Source of the DNA: a phage
DNA length: 44,179 nt
Reading direction: 5' to 3' (one strand)
NCBI GenBank assembly: GCA_032279465.1
Contig: GCA_032279465.1_4357.1
Within the stretch, counting starts at the first letter, position 1; each line of letters begins with the position of its first letter. Below are positions 3,438 to 44,179 of the stretch, piece after piece. Under the pieces are notes generated by a model, which had not been told where the DNA came from, did not search any database, and worked only from the letters and a program-made list of their open reading frames with translations. The translations under genes were made by a program, and so were the position numbers.

Positions 3438-3471
3438 AACCCTCACTCCTCTGTCTCGTTTTGATAAGTGA

Positions 3472-3500
3472 ATAGTATCCTATTATGTTGGGGTGTGCAA
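3472..3500 (-). promoter_or_regulatory. Sigma70-like promoter (type 1: TTGCAC-N17-TACTAT) with AATAG-N4-CTATT inverted repeat
   Basis: Minus-strand -35 TTGCAC (3495-3500), 17-nt spacer, -10 TACTAT (3472-3477); inverted repeat 3471-3484. Confidence 0.55.
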
Positions 3501-3559
3501 GAGATTAGTTACGTTGCCGTTGTGATTCTTTCGTTTCTTAAAAGAGTACGCAACGCAGT

Positions 3560-3774
3560 GGGTGGGCGTTAGCCCACCCCAGCGGAGTGAAGTACTCTCT
3601 ATCTTGCTTACGGCAACTATAGAAACTTTTAATTATCAGTGACTTGGATATTTAGGCGGGATTAACAATAGACTTTGACCCTTCCGAAAGCGTCAGCGGA
3701 ACTACACTCAAGTGCCTAATGGCACGCGTTGCGTTCCCTGCCGCTCCGCGGTCGCTTGCGATATCTCACAAGCT
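3560..3774 (-). ncRNA. Structured leader RNA, copy A (putative antitermination/attenuator element)
   Basis: Non-coding; core 3665-3790 is a paralog of 35955-36078; predicted start near 3774 from promoter 3781-3809; 5' hairpin 3754-3773; covarying stem 3698-3702/3733-3737 enclosing hairpin 3712-3725; ends at GC hairpin 3560-3579. Confidence 0.45.
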
Positions 3775-3780
3775 CAGTGA

Positions 3781-3809
3781 AGCTTAGCATATTTTCAAGT
3801 AAAAGTCAA
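3781..3809 (-). promoter_or_regulatory. Promoter of leader RNA copy A (TTGACT-N17-TGcTAAGCT)
   Basis: Minus-strand -35 TTGACT (3804-3809), 17-nt spacer, extended -10 TGcTAAGCT (3781-3789); same architecture as 36069-36097. Confidence 0.5.
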
Positions 3810-3916: not shown

Positions 3917-4099
3917 ATGCAGCATTACATGACACAGAATGAAGTGGCTGAACGTATCGGGGTGACCCGTCAAACAATTAATAATTGGTTGCGCAGCGGT
4001 AAATTCCCTGATTGCTGTATTAAGGTTATGGGTCGCCGTTTACCAGGAACATTTGACCGTAATAAAGTTGAAGCATGGATTAAGGAGAACGTGAAATGA
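3917..4099 (+). CDS. Small HTH DNA-binding protein (AlpA/excisionase-like)
   Basis: ORF track 3845..4099; ATG 3917 behind AGGAG; helix-turn-helix segment NEVAERIGVTRQTINNWLRSGKFP. Confidence 0.6.
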   Translation: MQHYMTQNEVAERIGVTRQTINNWLRSGKFPDCCIKVMGRRLPGTFDRNKVEAWIKENVK

Positions 4100-7314: not shown

Positions 7315-7387
7315 TTGATATGTGAATAGTACCATATTAATTATTTTAGAAAAGCCCATTGACATGTGAATAGTTCGCTATTATAGT
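7315..7387 (+). promoter_or_regulatory. Tandem sigma70-like promoters (type 2) with two AATAG-N4-(C/A)TATT inverted repeats
   Basis: P1 TTGATA (7315-7320)-N17-TAATTA; P2 TTGACA (7359-7364)-N17-TATAGT (7382-7387); inverted repeats 7325-7338 and 7369-7382; divergent from XRE gene. Confidence 0.55.
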
Positions 7388-7415
7388 TAGCCCATACCAA
7401 ACGAGAGGGGCAGAT

Positions 7416-9713: not shown

Positions 9714-9913
9714 TTCAAGTAAATGAAATGCCCACAGATAAAGATTTTGTGATGATATGGCGCTGGGGCGGTTATATCCATTCGGAATCGTTTACGTTCC
9801 TGAACGGCACGATGGTGCGATACAACCATGTGGGGGATGAATTCGAACCCGTTGATATGAATGATTTCGAGAACATAGTCCGTATTGCGAAATTTTATTT
9901 GACACCTGAATAG
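9710..9913 (+). CDS. Hypothetical protein
   Basis: 67 aa ORF coupled to exonuclease. Confidence 0.35.
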   Translation: MIQVNEMPTDKDFVMIWRWGGYIHSESFTFLNGTMVRYNHVGDEFEPVDMNDFENIVRIAKFYLTPE

Positions 9914-9927
9914 TTAGCTATTATAGT
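9899..9927 (+). promoter_or_regulatory. Sigma70-like promoter (type 2: TTGACA-N17-TATAGT) with inverted repeat
   Basis: -35 TTGACA 9899-9904, -10 TATAGT 9922-9927, inverted repeat 9909-9922; followed by 5' UTR hairpin CCGGG/CCCGG near 9940-9955. Confidence 0.55.
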
Positions 9928-13715: not shown

Positions 13716-13992
13716 AGAGGGCCGCGTACAGAAATACGCAAAAGAGCGATTCGAGGCCCTCGGGGGCCTCGTTCGTAAGTTGTCGTACGAAAATAGAGTG
13801 GGCGCTCCCGACCTGCTGGTAATTCTCCCCGGCGGCATCATCTGGTTCGTCGAGGTTAAGAAAGACGAAAACACGAAGCCAGACCCGCACCAGCTACGCG
13901 AGCACGAGCGGATGCGTAAACGCGGTGCAGATGTTTTTGTCGTCGGGTCGTTCAAACAGGTTGACGACCTAATAGCGAACTATTATAGTTAG
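13705..13992 (+). CDS. VRR-NUC domain nuclease
   Basis: 95 aa; PD-(D/E)xK signature GAPDLLVILPGGIIWFVEVKK. Confidence 0.7.
   Translation: MATKEGRVQKYAKERFEALGGLVRKLSYENRVGAPDLLVILPGGIIWFVEVKKDENTKPDPHQLREHERMRKRGADVFVVGSFKQVDDLIANYYS
13961..13989 (+). promoter_or_regulatory. Sigma70-like promoter (type 2: TTGACG-N17-TATAGT) with inverted repeat
   Basis: -35 13961-13966, -10 13984-13989, inverted repeat 13971-13984; lies inside 3' end of VRR-NUC gene. Confidence 0.5.
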
Positions 13993-25707: not shown

Positions 25708-25814
25708 TCTTTAATCCTTTGGTTAAGAGGTTACGGGTTAAGGTTAATGCGCCAGACGGGAACCACCCGCTTTTCGTGTGCGACACTAGGCGCAAAATTA
25801 TTCTATCACATTAC

Positions 25815-25843
25815 TTGCACACCCCAATATAATAGTGTACTAT
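25815..25843 (+). promoter_or_regulatory. Sigma70-like promoter (type 1: TTGCAC-N17-TACTAT) of plus-strand accessory island
   Basis: -35 25815-25820, -10 25838-25843, inverted repeat 25831-25844; about 40 nt upstream of ATG 25885. Confidence 0.55.
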
Positions 25844-25884
25844 TCACTTACACCGACGATGTTATCCCAAACAGGAGCTACACC

Positions 25885-26076
25885 ATGACGGGTATTACTA
25901 TGTTCTTCTTAATCATTATCGTTTTAGTTTATTTTATTCCATTTCTCGTGGCGCATATGCGCGACCATAAAGCGAAATTAGCGATATTCATGGCTAATCT
26001 GTTTCTTGGATGGGTTCTGCTGCCGTGGGTATTTATTTTAATCTGGGCTTGCAACTCGAATGTCAAAGAGAAGTGA
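25885..26076 (+). CDS. Superinfection immunity-like small membrane protein
   Basis: 63 aa; IPFLVAHMRDHKAKLAIFMANLFLGWVLLPWVFILIWA resembles Imm-superinfection family proteins (recalled from memory); ACAGGAG Shine-Dalgarno; AT-rich. Confidence 0.5.
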   Translation: MTGITMFFLIIIVLVYFIPFLVAHMRDHKAKLAIFMANLFLGWVLLPWVFILIWACNSNVKEK

Positions 26077-26113
26077 GCTAGTATAGGACAAATCCTAAGC
26101 ACGAGGAATAAAC

Positions 26114-27244
26114 ATGGCCCGGAAGAAAATAACCGACGAACAGTTGCAGGAAGAATTGAACGCCGGTATGAAGAATGTAGATATCGCCCGTAAATACGGC
26201 ATCTCAGACCGCGTAATTCGTATCCGTAAAGCGAAGCTGGCTAAGAAAGGCGTGGGCCACGGGCGCGACGTTAGCCACCTTGTGCCAGACGGCTACAAGA
26301 TTAAAGGAACGTCGTCACTTGTGGACGAGTTCGGCAACACTAAGTTGCAATGGGTTAAGACTGATACCGACGCCGAACGTCAGGTTGAATTGATGGAAAC
26401 CGTAATAGAGGGCATGAAGTCAGAGATTACGCCCGTTGCGCCTGTTAAAGCGGCGCGCGCCAAACGTGACGACAAGCTACTCAATCTTTACACGGTATCT
26501 GATTTCCATCTCGGTATGCTGGCATGGGCCGATGAGAGCGGCGACGACTGGGGCATGAAGATTGCAGAAGACCTGTTCTCTCGGTGGTTCGACGCGGCGT
26601 TTCAGAAAGCACCGGATGCAGGAACAGGAGTTATTAACCTGCTTGGGGACTTCGCACACTTCGATAGTCTTGATGCCGTTACCCCCGAGTCACGCCATGT
26701 ATTAGATGCGGATACTCGCTATCAGAAACTGGTACGTTACATGATTCGTATGGTCCGCCGTGTTGTTGATATGGCGCTGGTTAAGCATCACACAGTAAAA
26801 CTTTTAATCGTTCAAGGTAACCACGACCCTGTTGGCTCCGTATGGCTTGCCGAAATGTTCACGGTTTTATACTCAAACGACAGCCGAGTGATTGTTGATA
26901 CGTCGCCGGATGTTTACAAGATGGTGCAACACGGCAAAACGACGCTGTTCTTCCATCACGGGCATAAAGCACGATTCGACGCTATCGAACCGGTTATGAT
27001 TGCCAAGTTCCGTAAAGCGTTCGGCGAGAGTGTTTACAGCTACGCCCACGTAGGCCATCTGCACCACCAGAAGATTGTAGAAAGCCGTAACATGATTGTT
27101 GGGCAACACCGCACCTTAGCGGCTAAAGACGCCTACGCCTCTCGCGGCGGATGGATGTCGGGCCGCAGTGCAAATGTAATTACTTATAGCGCCGAATATG
27201 GCGAGGTCGCACGTTTAACTATTTCACCGGAGATGCTGGGATGA
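26114..27244 (+). CDS. Calcineurin-like metallophosphoesterase with N-terminal HTH
   Basis: 376 aa; metallophosphatase motifs DFHLG, GDFAHFD, GNHD, HHGH, GHLHH; N-terminal DIARKYGISDRVIRIRK helix-turn-helix. Confidence 0.6.
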   Translation: MARKKITDEQLQEELNAGMKNVDIARKYGISDRVIRIRKAKLAKKGVGHGRDVSHLVPDGYKIKGTSSLVDEFGNTKLQWVKTDTDAERQVELMETVIEGMKSEITPVAPVKAARAKRDDKLLNLYTVSDFHLGMLAWADESGDDWGMKIAEDLFSRWFDAAFQKAPDAGTGVINLLGDFAHFDSLDAVTPESRHVLDADTRYQKLVRYMIRMVRRVVDMALVKHHTVKLLIVQGNHDPVGSVWLAEMFTVLYSNDSRVIVDTSPDVYKMVQHGKTTLFFHHGHKARFDAIEPVMIAKFRKAFGESVYSYAHVGHLHHQKIVESRNMIVGQHRTLAAKDAYASRGGWMSGRSANVITYSAEYGEVARLTISPEMLG

Positions 27245-27729
27245 AAGATATTGTAATTTTCGATTTAGACGGGACATTGGCTGACGGTACCCATCGCTTA
27301 CACCTGTTACCAAAAGATAACTACGGAGAAACGTGGGCGTGGAAGCCATTTAACATGGCCTGCAAAGATGACGCTCCGATATACGACAATATCCATTTGT
27401 GTAGCGTACTGTGGCATTCCGGACTTACTATAATTATCCTTACCGGGCGAAGTGATGACGCTGAGGAGGAGACTCGCGAATGGTTACGAGAGAATAACGT
27501 TAGGTTTGACACGCTAATCATGCGCGGCAAACACGACAACAGAAAAGACATCGTAATTAAAGAAGAGGTGTTGCGTGCTTTCGGACTGGAAAGAATCTTG
27601 TGTGCGTTCGACGACTCTCCAGCGGTAATAAAGCATTTCCGTGACCTCGGCATAACCGCACACGCAGTTACCGAATACGACTGTAACGGGAACTCTACAC
27701 ACTTAAAACCACACGGGAGCGATAAATAA
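27241..27729 (+). CDS. HAD-superfamily phosphatase/nucleotidase
   Basis: 162 aa; HAD motif I FDLDGTL. Confidence 0.6.
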   Translation: MKDIVIFDLDGTLADGTHRLHLLPKDNYGETWAWKPFNMACKDDAPIYDNIHLCSVLWHSGLTIIILTGRSDDAEEETREWLRENNVRFDTLIMRGKHDNRKDIVIKEEVLRAFGLERILCAFDDSPAVIKHFRDLGITAHAVTEYDCNGNSTHLKPHGSDK

Positions 27730-28283
27730 TGGCTAAGGTAATTATTCTTAATGGCCCTGCGGGTTGCGGGAAAGACACGCTTGCTATGGCGCTGGTAGAA
27801 ATGGGCTTTGCGAAAGGAACTACCAGTTTCAAGAATCCAATGTTCAATATTGCTTTGGCAGCGTTAGGCCAGGATGCTTACCACGAATTTCTCGACGGCT
27901 ACGACGACCGGGCGCGGAAAGAAAAACCCGAGGGTTTTCTTAATGGGTTGTCCCGCCGCCGGTTAATGATTGCCATTTCTGAGCAATTCATTAAACCGGT
28001 ATTCGGCGATGATTATTTCGGTAAGTATCTTGCTGAAAACTTGCCTGACGGCGACGAAGTTTTTGTAGTGTCCGATGGTGGATTCGCCAGTGAAGTTGCC
28101 CCTATCGTCGCCGCGGGGCATGACGTGCGAATCGTCCGCCTCCATCGTGACGGCTATACGTTCATCCGCGATAGCCGTGGCTATCTGTACGATGTTAGTG
28201 GTGTAAAAGATTACGACACCTACATCATACCGGGTGACGTTAAATCGAACGTTATAGACATTGCTTTAAAATTAGGTTTGTAA
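27729..28283 (+). CDS. Deoxynucleoside monophosphate kinase (T4 gp1-like)
   Basis: 184 aa; P-loop ILNGPAGCGKDT at N-terminus. Confidence 0.6.
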   Translation: MAKVIILNGPAGCGKDTLAMALVEMGFAKGTTSFKNPMFNIALAALGQDAYHEFLDGYDDRARKEKPEGFLNGLSRRRLMIAISEQFIKPVFGDDYFGKYLAENLPDGDEVFVVSDGGFASEVAPIVAAGHDVRIVRLHRDGYTFIRDSRGYLYDVSGVKDYDTYIIPGDVKSNVIDIALKLGL

Positions 28284-28287
28284 GAAA

Positions 28288-28315
28288 AAGGCCCCGAAAG
28301 GGGCCTTAGTTTTAT
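28288..28315. terminator. Bidirectional Rho-independent terminator
   Basis: Stem AAGGCCCC/GGGGCCTT with loop GAAA, then TAGTTTTAT; between dNMP kinase and convergent major tail gene. Confidence 0.65.
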
Positions 28316-30645: not shown

Positions 30646-31259
30646 CAGGCGGCCTCCAGTCTCGAGATAACCAGTAGCGCGGATGGTGCTGTACCCCATG
30701 AGGTTACGGTAGCCGCTTGCGGGTATACGCCGCCGAAGTTGCTTCCGGAGCTATCCCGCATAATCTGAACGGCAAAAGTCTGGCCTGCTGTTGGGTTAAT
30801 AACAACGCGAGATTCAATCGGGATTGTGGTGTCCGCGCTTACCAGTTTCGTGGCTGCTGGTGAGCCGTACTGAGCGCCGTTTACTAAAATACGTGATAGC
30901 AGGATTGACGTTCCGCTGGCACCTGTGCAGCCTGCCTGTAACTTGATGCGAACGGCGTAGTTACCCGCGGTGTTGAATGTAACAAGCCCCGCGGCATTAA
31001 TCATTACCGGGTCGGATGCACTACCCTGAGCTGCACCGAAAGTTAACTGCAATGCCGTATCTACCGCGGTAGGCGCTTGGGTTACCGTAGACGCGGCACG
31101 GAGAACTTCAACCTCTTTAACACCTGGAGTGGCGTAAATAGGTGAGTCAGCCATCTGTGTCATTACCTCGCGCAACGCTGCTGGGGTAATAAGCCCGGTA
31201 GTGTTATCGGGGAGGTTTGCGCCGATAAGAGTAAACATCTCTGATTTAGTCTTCGCCAT
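30645..31259 (-). CDS. Hypothetical structural protein
   Basis: 204 aa Ala/Thr/Gly-rich protein in connector region. Confidence 0.4.
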   Translation of the reverse strand: MAKTKSEMFTLIGANLPDNTTGLITPAALREVMTQMADSPIYATPGVKEVEVLRAASTVTQAPTAVDTALQLTFGAAQGSASDPVMINAAGLVTFNTAGNYAVRIKLQAGCTGASGTSILLSRILVNGAQYGSPAATKLVSADTTIPIESRVVINPTAGQTFAVQIMRDSSGSNFGGVYPQAATVTSWGTAPSALLVISRLEAA

Positions 31260-33453: not shown

Positions 33454-33512
33454 AATTTACCTCTTAGTAAATGAAAAGAGGGACCGAAGTCCCTCTCGAT
33501 TATAGCTTAACC

Positions 33513-35844: not shown

Positions 35845-35861
35845 GTTTCTCCTTTCTCGAT

Positions 35862-36062
35862 AAGTAAAGCCCCGCCTTAAAGCGGGGCGCTAGTCCTTAT
35901 CATTTAAACATAGAAACGGCGTAATCTAAGTAAACCTGTTACTTTTTACACAAGCAATAGAGTATGGCCCTTCCGAACGCGTCAGCGTAACTACACTCAG
36001 GACTTACGTCCCGCTCCGTTACCTGCCCGCGCCGCGGTCGCTTGTTCATACTTCACAAGCTC
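35862..36062 (-). ncRNA. Structured leader RNA, copy B (putative antitermination/attenuator element) ending in intrinsic terminator
   Basis: Paralog of 3665-3790; predicted start near 36062; 5' hairpin 36040-36060; covarying stem 35987-35991/36018-36022 enclosing hairpin 36000-36011; terminator stem 35869-35875/35882-35888 plus U-tract, about 25 nt upstream of Rz start. Confidence 0.45.
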
Positions 36063-36068
36063 AGGTGG

Positions 36069-36097
36069 AGCTTAGCACATTTTTAGTGAAAAGTCAA
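36069..36097 (-). promoter_or_regulatory. Promoter of leader RNA copy B (TTGACT-N17-TGcTAAGCT)
   Basis: Minus-strand -35 36092-36097, 17-nt spacer, extended -10 36069-36077; identical elements to copy A. Confidence 0.5.
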
Positions 36098-36111
36098 CTA
36101 TTCGAATAGTT
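36096..36111. promoter_or_regulatory. Perfect 16-bp palindrome AACTATTCGAATAGTT overlapping -35 of leader-RNA promoter
   Basis: Same GAATAG/CTATTC half-sites as the promoter inverted repeat, here with zero spacer; adjacent inverted repeat TATTCCA...TGGAATA. Confidence 0.4.
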
Positions 36112-36163: not shown

Positions 36164-36192
36164 TTGCACACCCCAATATAATAGGGTACTAT
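36164..36192 (+). promoter_or_regulatory. Sigma70-like promoter (type 1: TTGCAC-N17-TACTAT) of 67-aa moron
   Basis: -35 36164-36169, -10 36187-36192, inverted repeat 36180-36193; AGGAGG Shine-Dalgarno then ATG 36220. Confidence 0.55.
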
Positions 36193-36219
36193 TCAGTTAA
36201 CTTAAACAGGAGGTGAAAA

Positions 36220-36423
36220 ATGTATGCAATTTGCGAAGTAGTTCAAGAGTTCGATGAAGAGTTCGACGGTGACTTGTGCCGGGTTAAAAAGGTTCTGCAG
36301 GTTTTCCCTGACGCAATGTCTGCTTACAAGGCATTAGATATATTTGAACCTGGAAGATACGGGGATTATGACACTGTTCTGAGGGTTGTCCATGAGCAGG
36401 ATTTAAACACAAGATTCCGTTGA
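36220..36423 (+). CDS. Hypothetical acidic protein (moron)
   Basis: 67 aa; own promoter and terminator; opposite orientation to surrounding late genes. Confidence 0.5.
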   Translation: MYAICEVVQEFDEEFDGDLCRVKKVLQVFPDAMSAYKALDIFEPGRYGDYDTVLRVVHEQDLNTRFR

Positions 36424-36429
36424 AAACTA

Positions 36430-36455
36430 AAGCCCCGTAAGGGGCCTTTTATCAT
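36430..36455. terminator. Rho-independent terminator
   Basis: Stem GCCCC/GGGGC with loop GTAA, followed by CTTTTATC. Confidence 0.55.
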
Positions 36456-38098: not shown

Positions 38099-38752
38099 AT
38101 GAAACTGCAAACATTAGAGTTCCCTTATGGAGAAATCACTTTTGACCGTGAAAACTTTATTAACGTAAACGAGCTGGTTGACCAGATGAACCGTTGGCGT
38201 TTAGACAACGGCATGGGGGCCAGAGAGCTTCGCCAGGTCATGGCAACGGATGGCTTCAAGATTTTCAAGGAGGAATGCGAAAAACAACTCGGAATCGAGA
38301 ATGCCATAAGGGCGACGAAAGGCCGAAACGGTCGCACCTTTGCATGTCTCCATCTGGCAGTATATATTGCGGAGCAATACAGCGCCTATTTCCATTTCCT
38401 CGTTATCGACCGCTTTATCACACAACGGCAGGTAGAACTACGAAACATTGGCGCGGTGAGCTTTGTCGAGCTTAACGCTGCCGTTAGTCGAATGATCGAG
38501 CGCACGGAGGGAAGAATTGGCCACAGTGGACACTTCATACAGGTGGCTAAAGCGGTAAAGGAATCCGTAGATATCCGCGACGTAACGGGTTTCGATACAT
38601 GGGACTCTCAGGATGCGAAGACCAATCAGTTGCGAAGTGACATCCAGAAAGCTCTGGTGACGCTTCTTGACATGGAGGCCGTTAATACATGGGGTGAACT
38701 GAAAGAGGCGATACCTCGGGTTGTGCGTAAATGTGCGGCTAATATACGTTAA
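38099..38752 (+). CDS. KilA-N domain protein (moron)
   Basis: 217 aa; GRNGRTFACLHLAVYIAEQYSAYFHFLVIDRF resembles KilA-N core; own promoter and terminator; opposite orientation to late genes. Confidence 0.5.
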   Translation: MKLQTLEFPYGEITFDRENFINVNELVDQMNRWRLDNGMGARELRQVMATDGFKIFKEECEKQLGIENAIRATKGRNGRTFACLHLAVYIAEQYSAYFHFLVIDRFITQRQVELRNIGAVSFVELNAAVSRMIERTEGRIGHSGHFIQVAKAVKESVDIRDVTGFDTWDSQDAKTNQLRSDIQKALVTLLDMEAVNTWGELKEAIPRVVRKCAANIR

Positions 38753-38756
38753 AACT

Positions 38757-38783
38757 AAGGCCCCTAGCGGGGCCTTTCTATTT
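38757..38783. terminator. Bidirectional Rho-independent terminator
   Basis: Stem AGGCCCC/GGGGCCT with loop TAGC, then TTCTATTT; between KilA-N and convergent portal gene. Confidence 0.6.
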
Positions 38784-43720: not shown

Positions 43721-44179
43721 TCTTTACGCTCTCCCCACATGCGATTGAGATACTTGTTCTTGTCCGGCCCAGGGAAACTGTTACGTTTCATCAGTTCCTC
43801 GCGTGTCGGGAACGGGGTGTGGCTGACTTTACGGCCTACCCGTAGTGGTTGGCTTACTTGACCTTGTTCGCTCATTTCTTCTCTCCTGCATAAGCTGCTT
43901 TCAGTGCCTGCATTGCCGCGGCCCAGAACGCGTCAGCCTGGATATTGCTGCTCAGGTTATTGACGGCGATGCGCGCCATCAGTTGTGCGTCTTTGAATGC
44001 TTCGGTATCTGTGATTTTCATTTCCCAAAAACCCCTTTAGTTTTCAGTTTATTGCGATAGAACTGCATCACATGTTCATTATGGAAGTTACTCATCTTCT
44101 CTACTCCGTTCTCGTTGTCGATGAAGTAAATATAATAGGGTCGAGGATAATAGTCAACTAGTCATCACAGAAAATAGAT

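Follow-up and report, generated by a model that had tools for sequence, protein, structure and literature searches.

The 44,179-nucleotide (nt) stretch of phage DNA analyzed here (GenBank assembly GCA_032279465.1, contig GCA_032279465.1_4357.1), which we call the window, represents the complete genome of a virulent E. coli siphophage, a Kagunavirus of the Guernseyvirinae, and its nearest relatives are phiEc4 and vB_Eco_K-01. Two of its regions, 3665-3790 and 35955-36078, resemble each other and hold no conserved gene, which raises the question of what is being preserved at these sites. A first inspection of the letters alone (the sequence-only reading) had taken the two for copies of a structured leader RNA read from the minus strand. 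In the present study, comparative analysis identified both regions as copies (copy A and copy B, respectively) of one previously undescribed structured RNA family of approximately 95-110 nt. The element was found in essentially all Guernseyvirinae, amounting to approximately 450 sequenced E. coli and Salmonella phages, and it heads the operon of Rz, scaffold, major capsid, and tail genes.

Pairwise alignment confirmed that the two regions were paralogs in the same orientation. The alignment spanned the promoter, the element, and part of the downstream spacer, and the core direct repeat between the copies (D5, 45 nt) showed 89% identity. A two-copy profile recovered each copy from the window with an nhmmer E of approximately 1e-51 to 1e-52, these values being self-matches by construction. 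The insertions and deletions between copy A and copy B measured 1, 1, 1, 4, 2, and 7 nt, with the first four lying within the element of about 110 nt and the 2-nt and 7-nt gaps in the downstream spacer; the earlier statement that they do not come in multiples of three was correct. Copy A, which is module 1 of its leader, occupied 3666-3778 on the minus strand, with hairpin P1 at 3754-3773, stem P2a/P2b at 3684-3751 around hairpin P3 (3712-3725), and a conserved 3' tail (UUCGGAAGGGUC...CUAUUG) ending at 3666. Copy B, likewise module 1, occupied 35955-36065 on the minus strand, with P1 at 36040-36060, P2/P3 at 35973-36037, and the tail extending to 35955.

The promoter attributed to both copies by the sequence-only reading was recovered exactly. 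TTGACT-N17-(TGC)TAAGCT was located on the minus strand at 3781-3809 (P_A, predicted start near 3774-3775) and at 36069-36097 (P_B, predicted start near 36062-36063), placing the same TTGACT-N17-TGCTAAGCT 3-4 nt upstream of either copy. The pattern TTGACT-N14-TGNTAAGCT occurred at exactly two sites in the window, both on the minus strand, against a chance expectation of 0.21. The -35 hexamer, the 17-base-pair (bp) spacing, and TGnTA(A/C)GCT were constant in all sequence types of the element, including that of Salmonella phage Jersey, and the sequence of the spacer varied. The first helix (P1) began 2-3 nt past the predicted transcription start, and its distance from the promoter was fixed across genera.

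The predicted minus-strand fold of either copy consisted of the 5'-terminal hairpin P1, a linker of 1-2 nt, and a long irregular stem composed, in order, of P2a, a GG/A internal loop, P2b, a purine-rich internal loop, and the apical hairpin P3. P2a was made up of CCG, a bulged C, and then six pairs starting with two G·U. The minimum free energy of copy A was -47 kcal/mol (z = -2.6). Homologs were gathered from viral contigs and GenBank phages, and six Kagunavirus sequence types were distinguished (B and A1 to A5). In a MAFFT alignment of 26 distinct sequences, 95.5% of the cells paired, compared with 30-42% when the 3' partners were slid by 1-3 columns, and the covariation score was 0.18 versus 0.083 in shuffles (0/500 reached it). 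A covariance model (R1) built from this alignment scored copy A at 97 bits and copy B at 138 bits. In the covariance-model alignment of 36 distinct homologs, 95.7% of the cells paired (30-39% when slid), and the covariation in related phages that the sequence-only reading had anticipated appeared as double-sided compensatory changes in 15 of the 29 pairs (0/500 shuffles). The 36-sequence alignment was fitted to the model and is therefore biased toward structure; the MAFFT result showed that the signal was independent of that bias.

The compensatory differences first noticed between the copies were correctly transcribed. P2b is GGAAC/GTTCC (3698-3702/3733-3737) in copy A and GTAAC/GTTAC in copy B, and the enclosed hairpin GTGCC-TAAT-GGCAC (3712-3725) becomes GGAC-TTAC-GTCC. 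A fourth compensatory difference was found in GGAGCG/CGCUUU (copy A) versus GGCGCG/CGCGUU (copy B), an A-U to C-G change. Among the homologs, one P2a pair occurred as C-G, U-A, and A-U; P2b occurred as GGAAC/GUUCC, GUAAC/GUUAC, and GAAAC/GUUUC, and in Jersey as UCGCG/CGCGA; and P3 was formed by six or more helices, including GUGCC/GGCAC, GGAC/GUCC, GUGC/GCAC, GGGC/GCCC, CACG/CGUG, and GGGCG/CGCCC. P1, which is GCUUGU/ACAAGC in Kagunavirus, was wholly replaced by UACGCU/AGCGUA in Jersey. Invariant across genera were the non-helical features, namely the motif ACCGCGG, including its bulged C, the tandem G·U, the GG/A loop (in phage Jersey itself, closed up into a G-C pair), 5' GRAGC / 3' AGYGUA, and the single-stranded tail UUCGGAAGGGYC...UAUUGCUU (ending UAUUG). 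The sequence of the P3 loop was not conserved, and the P1 loop was missing in Jersey. Pairing of the P1 loop (AGUAUG) with the 3' tail (CAUACU) into a pseudoknot, of 6 bp in copy B, was rejected on a C/G polymorphism of the tail that is uncompensated and on the missing Jersey loop. A K-turn was also rejected, its GA/GA arrangement being unsuited; a loop-E-like GAA/GUA in Jersey is possible.

Strand assignment followed from the wobble pairs. As the sequence-only reading had pointed out, hairpin 3754-3773 has a plus-strand mismatch (C3759/A3768) that, in RNA of the minus strand, reads as a U·G pair. The homologs contained 114 G·U cells, and the opposite strand would have just 85.4% standard pairs. 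Together with the promoter, these cells indicated that the functional molecule is the minus-strand transcript, in agreement with the original argument. Taken as a whole, the element is very probably a structured minus-strand RNA.

The absence of any open reading frame (ORF), asserted in the sequence-only reading, was upheld in part. Small ORFs do exist over the element, with 36 amino acids (aa) in copy B and 24 aa in copy A, and neither their frame nor their content is conserved. A conserved small ORF was rejected: frame, length, and content differed between types, copy A had no start codon in the sole recurrent frame ('AFGRAxLYC'), a Pfam search of the element ORFs gave no match, and no Shine-Dalgarno sequence was found for them. 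Conservation of the 'AFGRAxLYC' frame is that of the RNA tail itself, and its variable 'third position' base covaries with the helix partner. The family phrog_14923 (function unassigned) was matched solely by a 39-aa Jersey-type frame, as would be expected if that family had been assembled from ORFs called over the element. 'Hypothetical protein' coding sequences (CDSs) are annotated over the element on either strand, such as Jersey gp08 (L046 7265-7456) and K-01 CDS0082 (L037 5100-5210), with further calls at L036 5080-5169 and L042 526-669; these are probably mis-annotations.

The view that the RNA belongs to no described family was supported by Rfam 15, which returned no match in gathering mode for the whole window; in E-value mode, the matches obtained with copy A, copy B, and the Jersey homolog were all at chance level (E >= 0.16, scores far below gathering). 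A literature search on non-coding RNA or transcriptomes of Guernseyvirinae, Kagunavirus, and Jerseyvirus yielded nothing relevant.

The distribution of the element indicated which copy is older. The Kagunavirus type was present in 181 phage records, 43 of which had two copies, and the Jersey type was present in another 268 records, always as a single copy. The diverged homolog of phage Jersey (7305-7401; R1: 37 bits, E = 1e-8) lies exactly at the copy-B position, between a Hoc-like gene and Rz, and R1 also matched other Jersey-like contigs. Since the Jersey type is always single, the comparison identifies copy B as ancestral and subfamily-wide, and copy A as derived. Phage K1G has no copy A. 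Its A site is occupied by another promoter and leader, and from '...CACTGATAATTAAAAGTTTCTATAGTTGCCG' onward its spacer, hairpin module, and TTGCAC promoter are the same as in the window. From the K1G pattern it follows that, in some Kagunavirus lineages, copy A is a promoter and RNA cassette recombined into another leader. With the filters off, the covariance model found no second copy at the A-equivalent site of Jersey, where the leader was unrelated and structured (z = -3.0). Additional matches to the pattern ACCGCGG...TYCGGAAGG in the same contigs were discarded; they look like chance, lie in coding sequence without a promoter, and fail the covariance model. A blastn search of 5,426 E. coli genomes gave no match, so no host mimicry was seen. 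At 25720-25850 of the window (minus strand), the tail operon (25707 leftwards) is preceded by an operator-bearing promoter of its own together with a different leader, GC-rich and about 90 nt long, and the covariance model found no third copy of the element there.

The gene layout, transferred from the vB_Eco_K-01 annotation, placed the two copies in different settings. Copy A lies in a divergent control region adjoining the replication genes. Rightward of it runs an early/replication operon with a helix-turn-helix (HTH) regulator (3917-4099), a helicase-primase, and an exonuclease; leftward lie many small genes, a peptidase, holins, and endolysin and, across the window ends, terminase, portal, and head morphogenesis. 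Directly downstream of copy B is the leftward operon of Rz/Rz1 spanin, scaffold, major head protein, neck, and tail.

Each leader continues past module 1 with a spacer and a second folded module, and the whole folds scored z = -3.4 (leader A) and z = -3.3 (leader B). In leader B, the spacer of about 50 nt (35902-35954, minus strand) is partly conserved with Jersey (GAUUNCGCCGU...AUGUUUA). Module 2 (35859-35901, minus strand) consists of an outer stem GAUAAG/CUUAUC around the hairpin GCCCCGC-UUUAAG-GCGGGGC (35869-35888), followed by UUUACUUAUC. This minus-strand hairpin was the top-listed terminator-like site in a scan of the 28-44 kilobase range, and the ribosome-binding site and start codon of Rz (35844) come directly after the module, at most 25 nt past the hairpin. 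No consensus-grade promoter was found between P_B and Rz, and a weak TTTACT-N16-TATGTT was seen by eye. Compensatory variants of this module occur in L037 and L067, and Jersey replaces both stems (UAUACG/CGUAUA around GCCCGGC/GCCGGGC), a sequence pattern that identifies module 2 of leader B as itself under structural selection. Further leftward terminators were located at 33476-33497, past the capsid gene, and at 28288-28307, where the operon ends.

In leader A, the spacer (3619-3665, minus strand) carries a second UCUAUNGUU-like motif (GUUUCUAUAGUU) and is common to K1G. Module 2 (3513-3618, minus strand) has an outer stem GUUGCCGU/ACGGCAAC (3611-3618 / 3513-3520) around an AGAGUAC/GUACUCU stem and the GC hairpin 3560-3579. 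The sequence-only reading had let the element end at this hairpin, a boundary that was not maintained, as the hairpin is a separate module present in K1G without copy A. It has no adjacent U-tract, is nested in two outer stems, was not flagged in the scan for terminator-like sites, and is followed by a separate operator-containing promoter. That promoter, TTGCAC-N17-TACTAT (3472-3500, minus strand), stands as described between leader A and the first gene (3446-3249); the 'leftward operon' said to follow it has further internal promoters. The outer stem of module 2 was kept in all A types, and the enclosed part was variable, with a (CTCA)n repeat in other lineages. In L039-L045 (Golestan, Schulenburg, Sciku, fTaEco03, L AB-2017, and UTI89UKE1), this microsatellite, of about 3 to 7 repeats between phages and about 50-80 nt past the element, is followed by a UUCG-tetraloop hairpin, and the two replace the GC hairpin of the window leader. 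The motif UCUAUNGUU (UAUnUGnUUUnCAG in Jersey) was observed twice per leader, at 3666-3673 and 3622-3633, at 35955-35963 and 35911-35921, and at 7393-7406 and 7420-7437 of L046 (Jersey); the two occurrences are separated by 35-45 nt in the window and by about 27 nt in Jersey, and the motif includes the CTATT half-site of the operator described below.

Several observations concern the promoters. All types carry a direct repeat of the -10 hexamer 3-5 nt further downstream, and P1 begins with this second hexamer: TAAGCT..TGAGCT in Kagunavirus (3775-3786 and 36063-36074) and TACGCT-ACC-TACGCT in Jersey (L046 7297-7311). The repeat may be a sigma70-dependent promoter-proximal pause element; the critical A is missing from position 2 of the Kagunavirus repeat hexamer, TGAGCT. 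The -35 hexamer of P_B is abutted, with an overlap of 2 bp, by a perfect 16-bp palindrome, AACTATTCGAATAGTT (36096-36111); this palindrome is centered near -41.5, the classic position of a class II activator, and is not kept in phage Jersey. A different 16-bp operator-like palindrome, GAATAGT-N3-CTATTA, gave 15 strand matches versus 0.86 expected, corresponding to about ten window sites (2363-2378, 3470-3485, 7324-7339, 7368-7383, 9908-9923, 13970-13985, 25830-25845, 36088-36103, 36179-36194, and 44148-44163 by pattern match). Almost all of them fall within a promoter spacer or over a -35 hexamer; the site at 36088-36103 overlaps the -35 hexamer of P_B, and P_A is without any such site. This pattern suggests that one phage DNA-binding regulator governs most promoters, for which the HTH protein (3917-4099) is a candidate.

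We infer the function of the element from this anatomy. By analogy with put of phage HK022, we tentatively favor a cis-acting nascent leader RNA that promotes terminator read-through, a reading that falls somewhat short of an even chance; antitermination mediated by leader RNA of any kind stands at about even. In the proposed mechanism, the RNA would act in cis as the nascent leader, and the folded RNA would bind the elongating host RNA polymerase, either alone, as HK022 put does, or with a factor. The modified polymerase would gain resistance to pausing and termination. It would pass the hairpin terminator 35869-35888, located about 65 nt past the element, and later terminators such as 33476-33497 past the capsid gene, leading to expression of the structural genes. 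Read-through control is favored because the best terminator-like site lies between P_B and the Rz ribosome-binding site with no consensus-grade promoter in between, and because two more terminators lie further on, one after the capsid gene and the other at the operon end.

In HK022, putL starts at +1 of its promoter; put RNA folds into two stem-loops side by side, is present twice per genome as paralogs that diverged through compensatory changes, and needs no protein (PMC9378689). The element resembled put in its place just after a sigma70 promoter and ahead of terminators, encoded on the sense strand of an operon, and in its two compensatorily diverged paralogs. Its two adjacent bulged stem-loops, supported by covariation, and the -10-like hexamer in its initial transcribed region recall those of put. 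A put-like, factor-independent action is conceivable by analogy, with a probability of roughly one third to just above it in our estimate. The promoter and RNA cassette is portable, with K1G keeping the same downstream modules under a different promoter and leader. That the element represents a second, independently evolved class of self-sufficient RNA-polymerase-modifying antiterminator RNA, moving as such a cassette and switching on the structural operon subfamily-wide, is on the doubtful side.

Several points weigh against this antitermination reading. The element is, on sequence and model comparison, not homologous to HK022 put: R1, run with filters off on a 5-kilobase HK022 region containing PL-putL (located next to the PL primer site), gave no match there, and its best match elsewhere reached 4.6 bits (E = 3.3). 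In contrast to put, the element is 95-110 nt rather than about 73 nt long, combines one short stem (20 nt) with one long stem (about 70 nt) in place of two similar stems, and stands before the structural/late genes of a virulent phage instead of in the early PL/PR operons of a temperate phage; moreover, most relatives have a single copy. Downstream of copy A stand a hairpin lacking a U-tract and, after it, a separate promoter, and the leftward array has several internal promoters, so antitermination is not obviously needed there. The Jersey hairpin past the element has a poor U-tract (UUAGCGUAU) and may therefore terminate badly. Finally, if put-like action were constitutive, it would leave timing uncontrolled unless P_B itself is regulated; P_B does have operator-like sites.

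The lambda late promoter offered a further comparison. Like P_R'-qut-6S RNA-t_R', the locus has a near-constitutive promoter, an untranslated leader of about 190 nt, a terminator, and a late/structural operon, and its -10 hexamer repeat just downstream could cause a sigma-dependent proximal pause. However, lambda Q acts through DNA (the Q-binding element, QBE) and needs no conserved RNA fold, whereas here the RNA fold is conserved. The lambda N/nut, EAR, and conAn2 systems are also leader RNA signals that make RNA polymerase terminator-resistant, and nutL/nutR likewise number two per genome. EAR and conAn2 are Gram-positive and in or related to known families, unlike the element, which had no Rfam match. 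Unlike nut, the leaders have no boxA, nor do they form a boxB-type GNRA-like hairpin of 15 nt whose loop is conserved. A search for boxA (GCTCTTTAACAA, at most 2 mismatches) gave no site in either leader and a single, unrelated window match at 31112. PHROGs recognized no Q- or N-like protein among 20 early/small proteins, many of which have no assigned function.

In one alternative, the conserved base of P2 and the internal loop would bind a phage or host RNA-binding protein, which could be an N/nut-like antiterminator or a translational or stability regulator, for example an autogenously acting structural protein. Non-helical features that are invariant across genera while helices covary are the usual sign of a recognition surface, and many early proteins of unassigned function are available as partners. 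However, the same features would equally serve direct binding of RNA polymerase, no candidate protein was identified, the leaders lack boxA, and the P3 loop is unconserved. We consider this protein-dependent leader unlikely.

The strong promoter of each copy and the terminator-like hairpin past copy B would also suit a stand-alone small RNA of about 190-260 nt that ends at the downstream hairpin and acts in trans on host or phage mRNAs or proteins, with the two copies as paralogous genes. At site A, the separate promoter past the hairpin module would allow the P_A unit to be an independent gene, and the promoter and RNA cassette is mobile. Against this, the Rz-capsid operon at site B begins 25 nt past the hairpin without a consensus-grade promoter of its own, so transcripts must continue there. 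In addition, the hairpins past copy A and in Jersey have no good U-tracts, the single-stranded 'seed' candidates are unconserved between genera (the P1 loop being missing in Jersey), and no complementarity target was found. Such a small RNA is therefore quite unlikely in our assessment.

Hairpins that stabilize mRNA at the 5' terminus are known, for example in the ompA 5' untranslated region (UTR), and P1 resembles them in lying 2-3 nt from the predicted 5' end with a conserved helix and an unconserved sequence. The leaders might accordingly serve as passive 5'-UTR armor that shields late mRNA from RNase E/RppH and from Rho loading with no specific regulatory interaction. They are untranslated, 200-270 nt long, and far more stably folded than shuffled sequences (z about -3.3), and the unrelated leaders at the A site in Jersey and K1G were called structured. 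However, stabilizers need no additional domain of about 70 nt with invariant bulges and loops, and passive protection leaves the strict conservation of bulges, tandem G·U, internal-loop bases, and tail across approximately 450 genomes unexplained. We regard purely passive protection as very unlikely.

The order of promoter, conserved structured domain, terminator, and genes is also the classic layout of a transcriptional riboswitch, which would place an aptamer that recognizes a small molecule or ion in module 1 and a terminator platform in module 2 and would tie late genes to host physiology; rod-like hairpins with conserved internal loops can be aptamers. Nevertheless, a gap of 50-65 nt separates the domain from the terminator, copy A has no adjacent terminator, the A-site module 2 exists without module 1 in K1G, and inspection revealed no competing, mutually exclusive helices with covariation between Kagunavirus and Jersey. 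An attenuator or antiterminator pairing of module 1 with the downstream hairpin was likewise rejected, as no complementarity covarying between genera was found. A riboswitch is thus highly improbable. Least probable of all is that the element is not an RNA: single-stranded DNA hairpins (a priming or origin signal) also tolerate G·T pairs and copy A adjoins replication genes, and a tiny peptide gene in the '...AFGRAxLYC' frame could draw on the annotated ORFs, the phrog_14923 match, and two synonymous-looking changes in one lineage, but the conserved promoter at fixed distance with its first helix at +2/+3 speaks against both, the compensatory changes rule out a duplex protein-binding site, and the peptide conflicts with its shifting frames, missing start codon and Shine-Dalgarno sequence, absent Pfam match, and a 'third-position' base that exactly covaries with its helix partner.

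Two further features of the genome were observed. A second promoter family, TTGCAC-N17-TACTAT (repeat family D7), has the operator in its spacer and occurs in four copies, 3500-3472 and 2393-2365 on the minus strand and 25815-25850 and 36164-36199 on the plus strand; the last drives a small rightward gene (36220-36423) divergent from P_B. In addition, rightward cassettes are inserted convergently in the leftward late array, flanked by bidirectional AAGGCCCC...GGGGCCTT terminators. They comprise an amidase (38099-38752, plus strand; terminator 38757-38776), a 67-aa ORF (36220-36423, plus strand; terminator 36432-36445), and an island with a superinfection-immunity-like protein, a polynucleotide kinase, and a deoxynucleoside monophosphate (dNMP) kinase (25747-28283, plus strand). 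Leftward transcription that runs from the portal gene into the head-morphogenesis gene must cross one such terminator.

Late-gene control in Guernseyvirinae appears not to have been described, the literature search having revealed no paper on it, and factor-independent antiterminator RNAs are known essentially from one phage family, that of HK022 put. An unrelated put-like RNA, if the antitermination reading is true, would reveal which properties allow an RNA to reprogram E. coli RNA polymerase and would add a second portable tool for antitermination. Independently of that reading, a strongly conserved, covariation-supported RNA is present in approximately 450 phages, many of them candidates for phage therapy or biocontrol against E. 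coli and Salmonella. It is at present unannotated or mis-annotated as 'hypothetical protein', and it is placed where expression of the capsid and tail genes is controlled.

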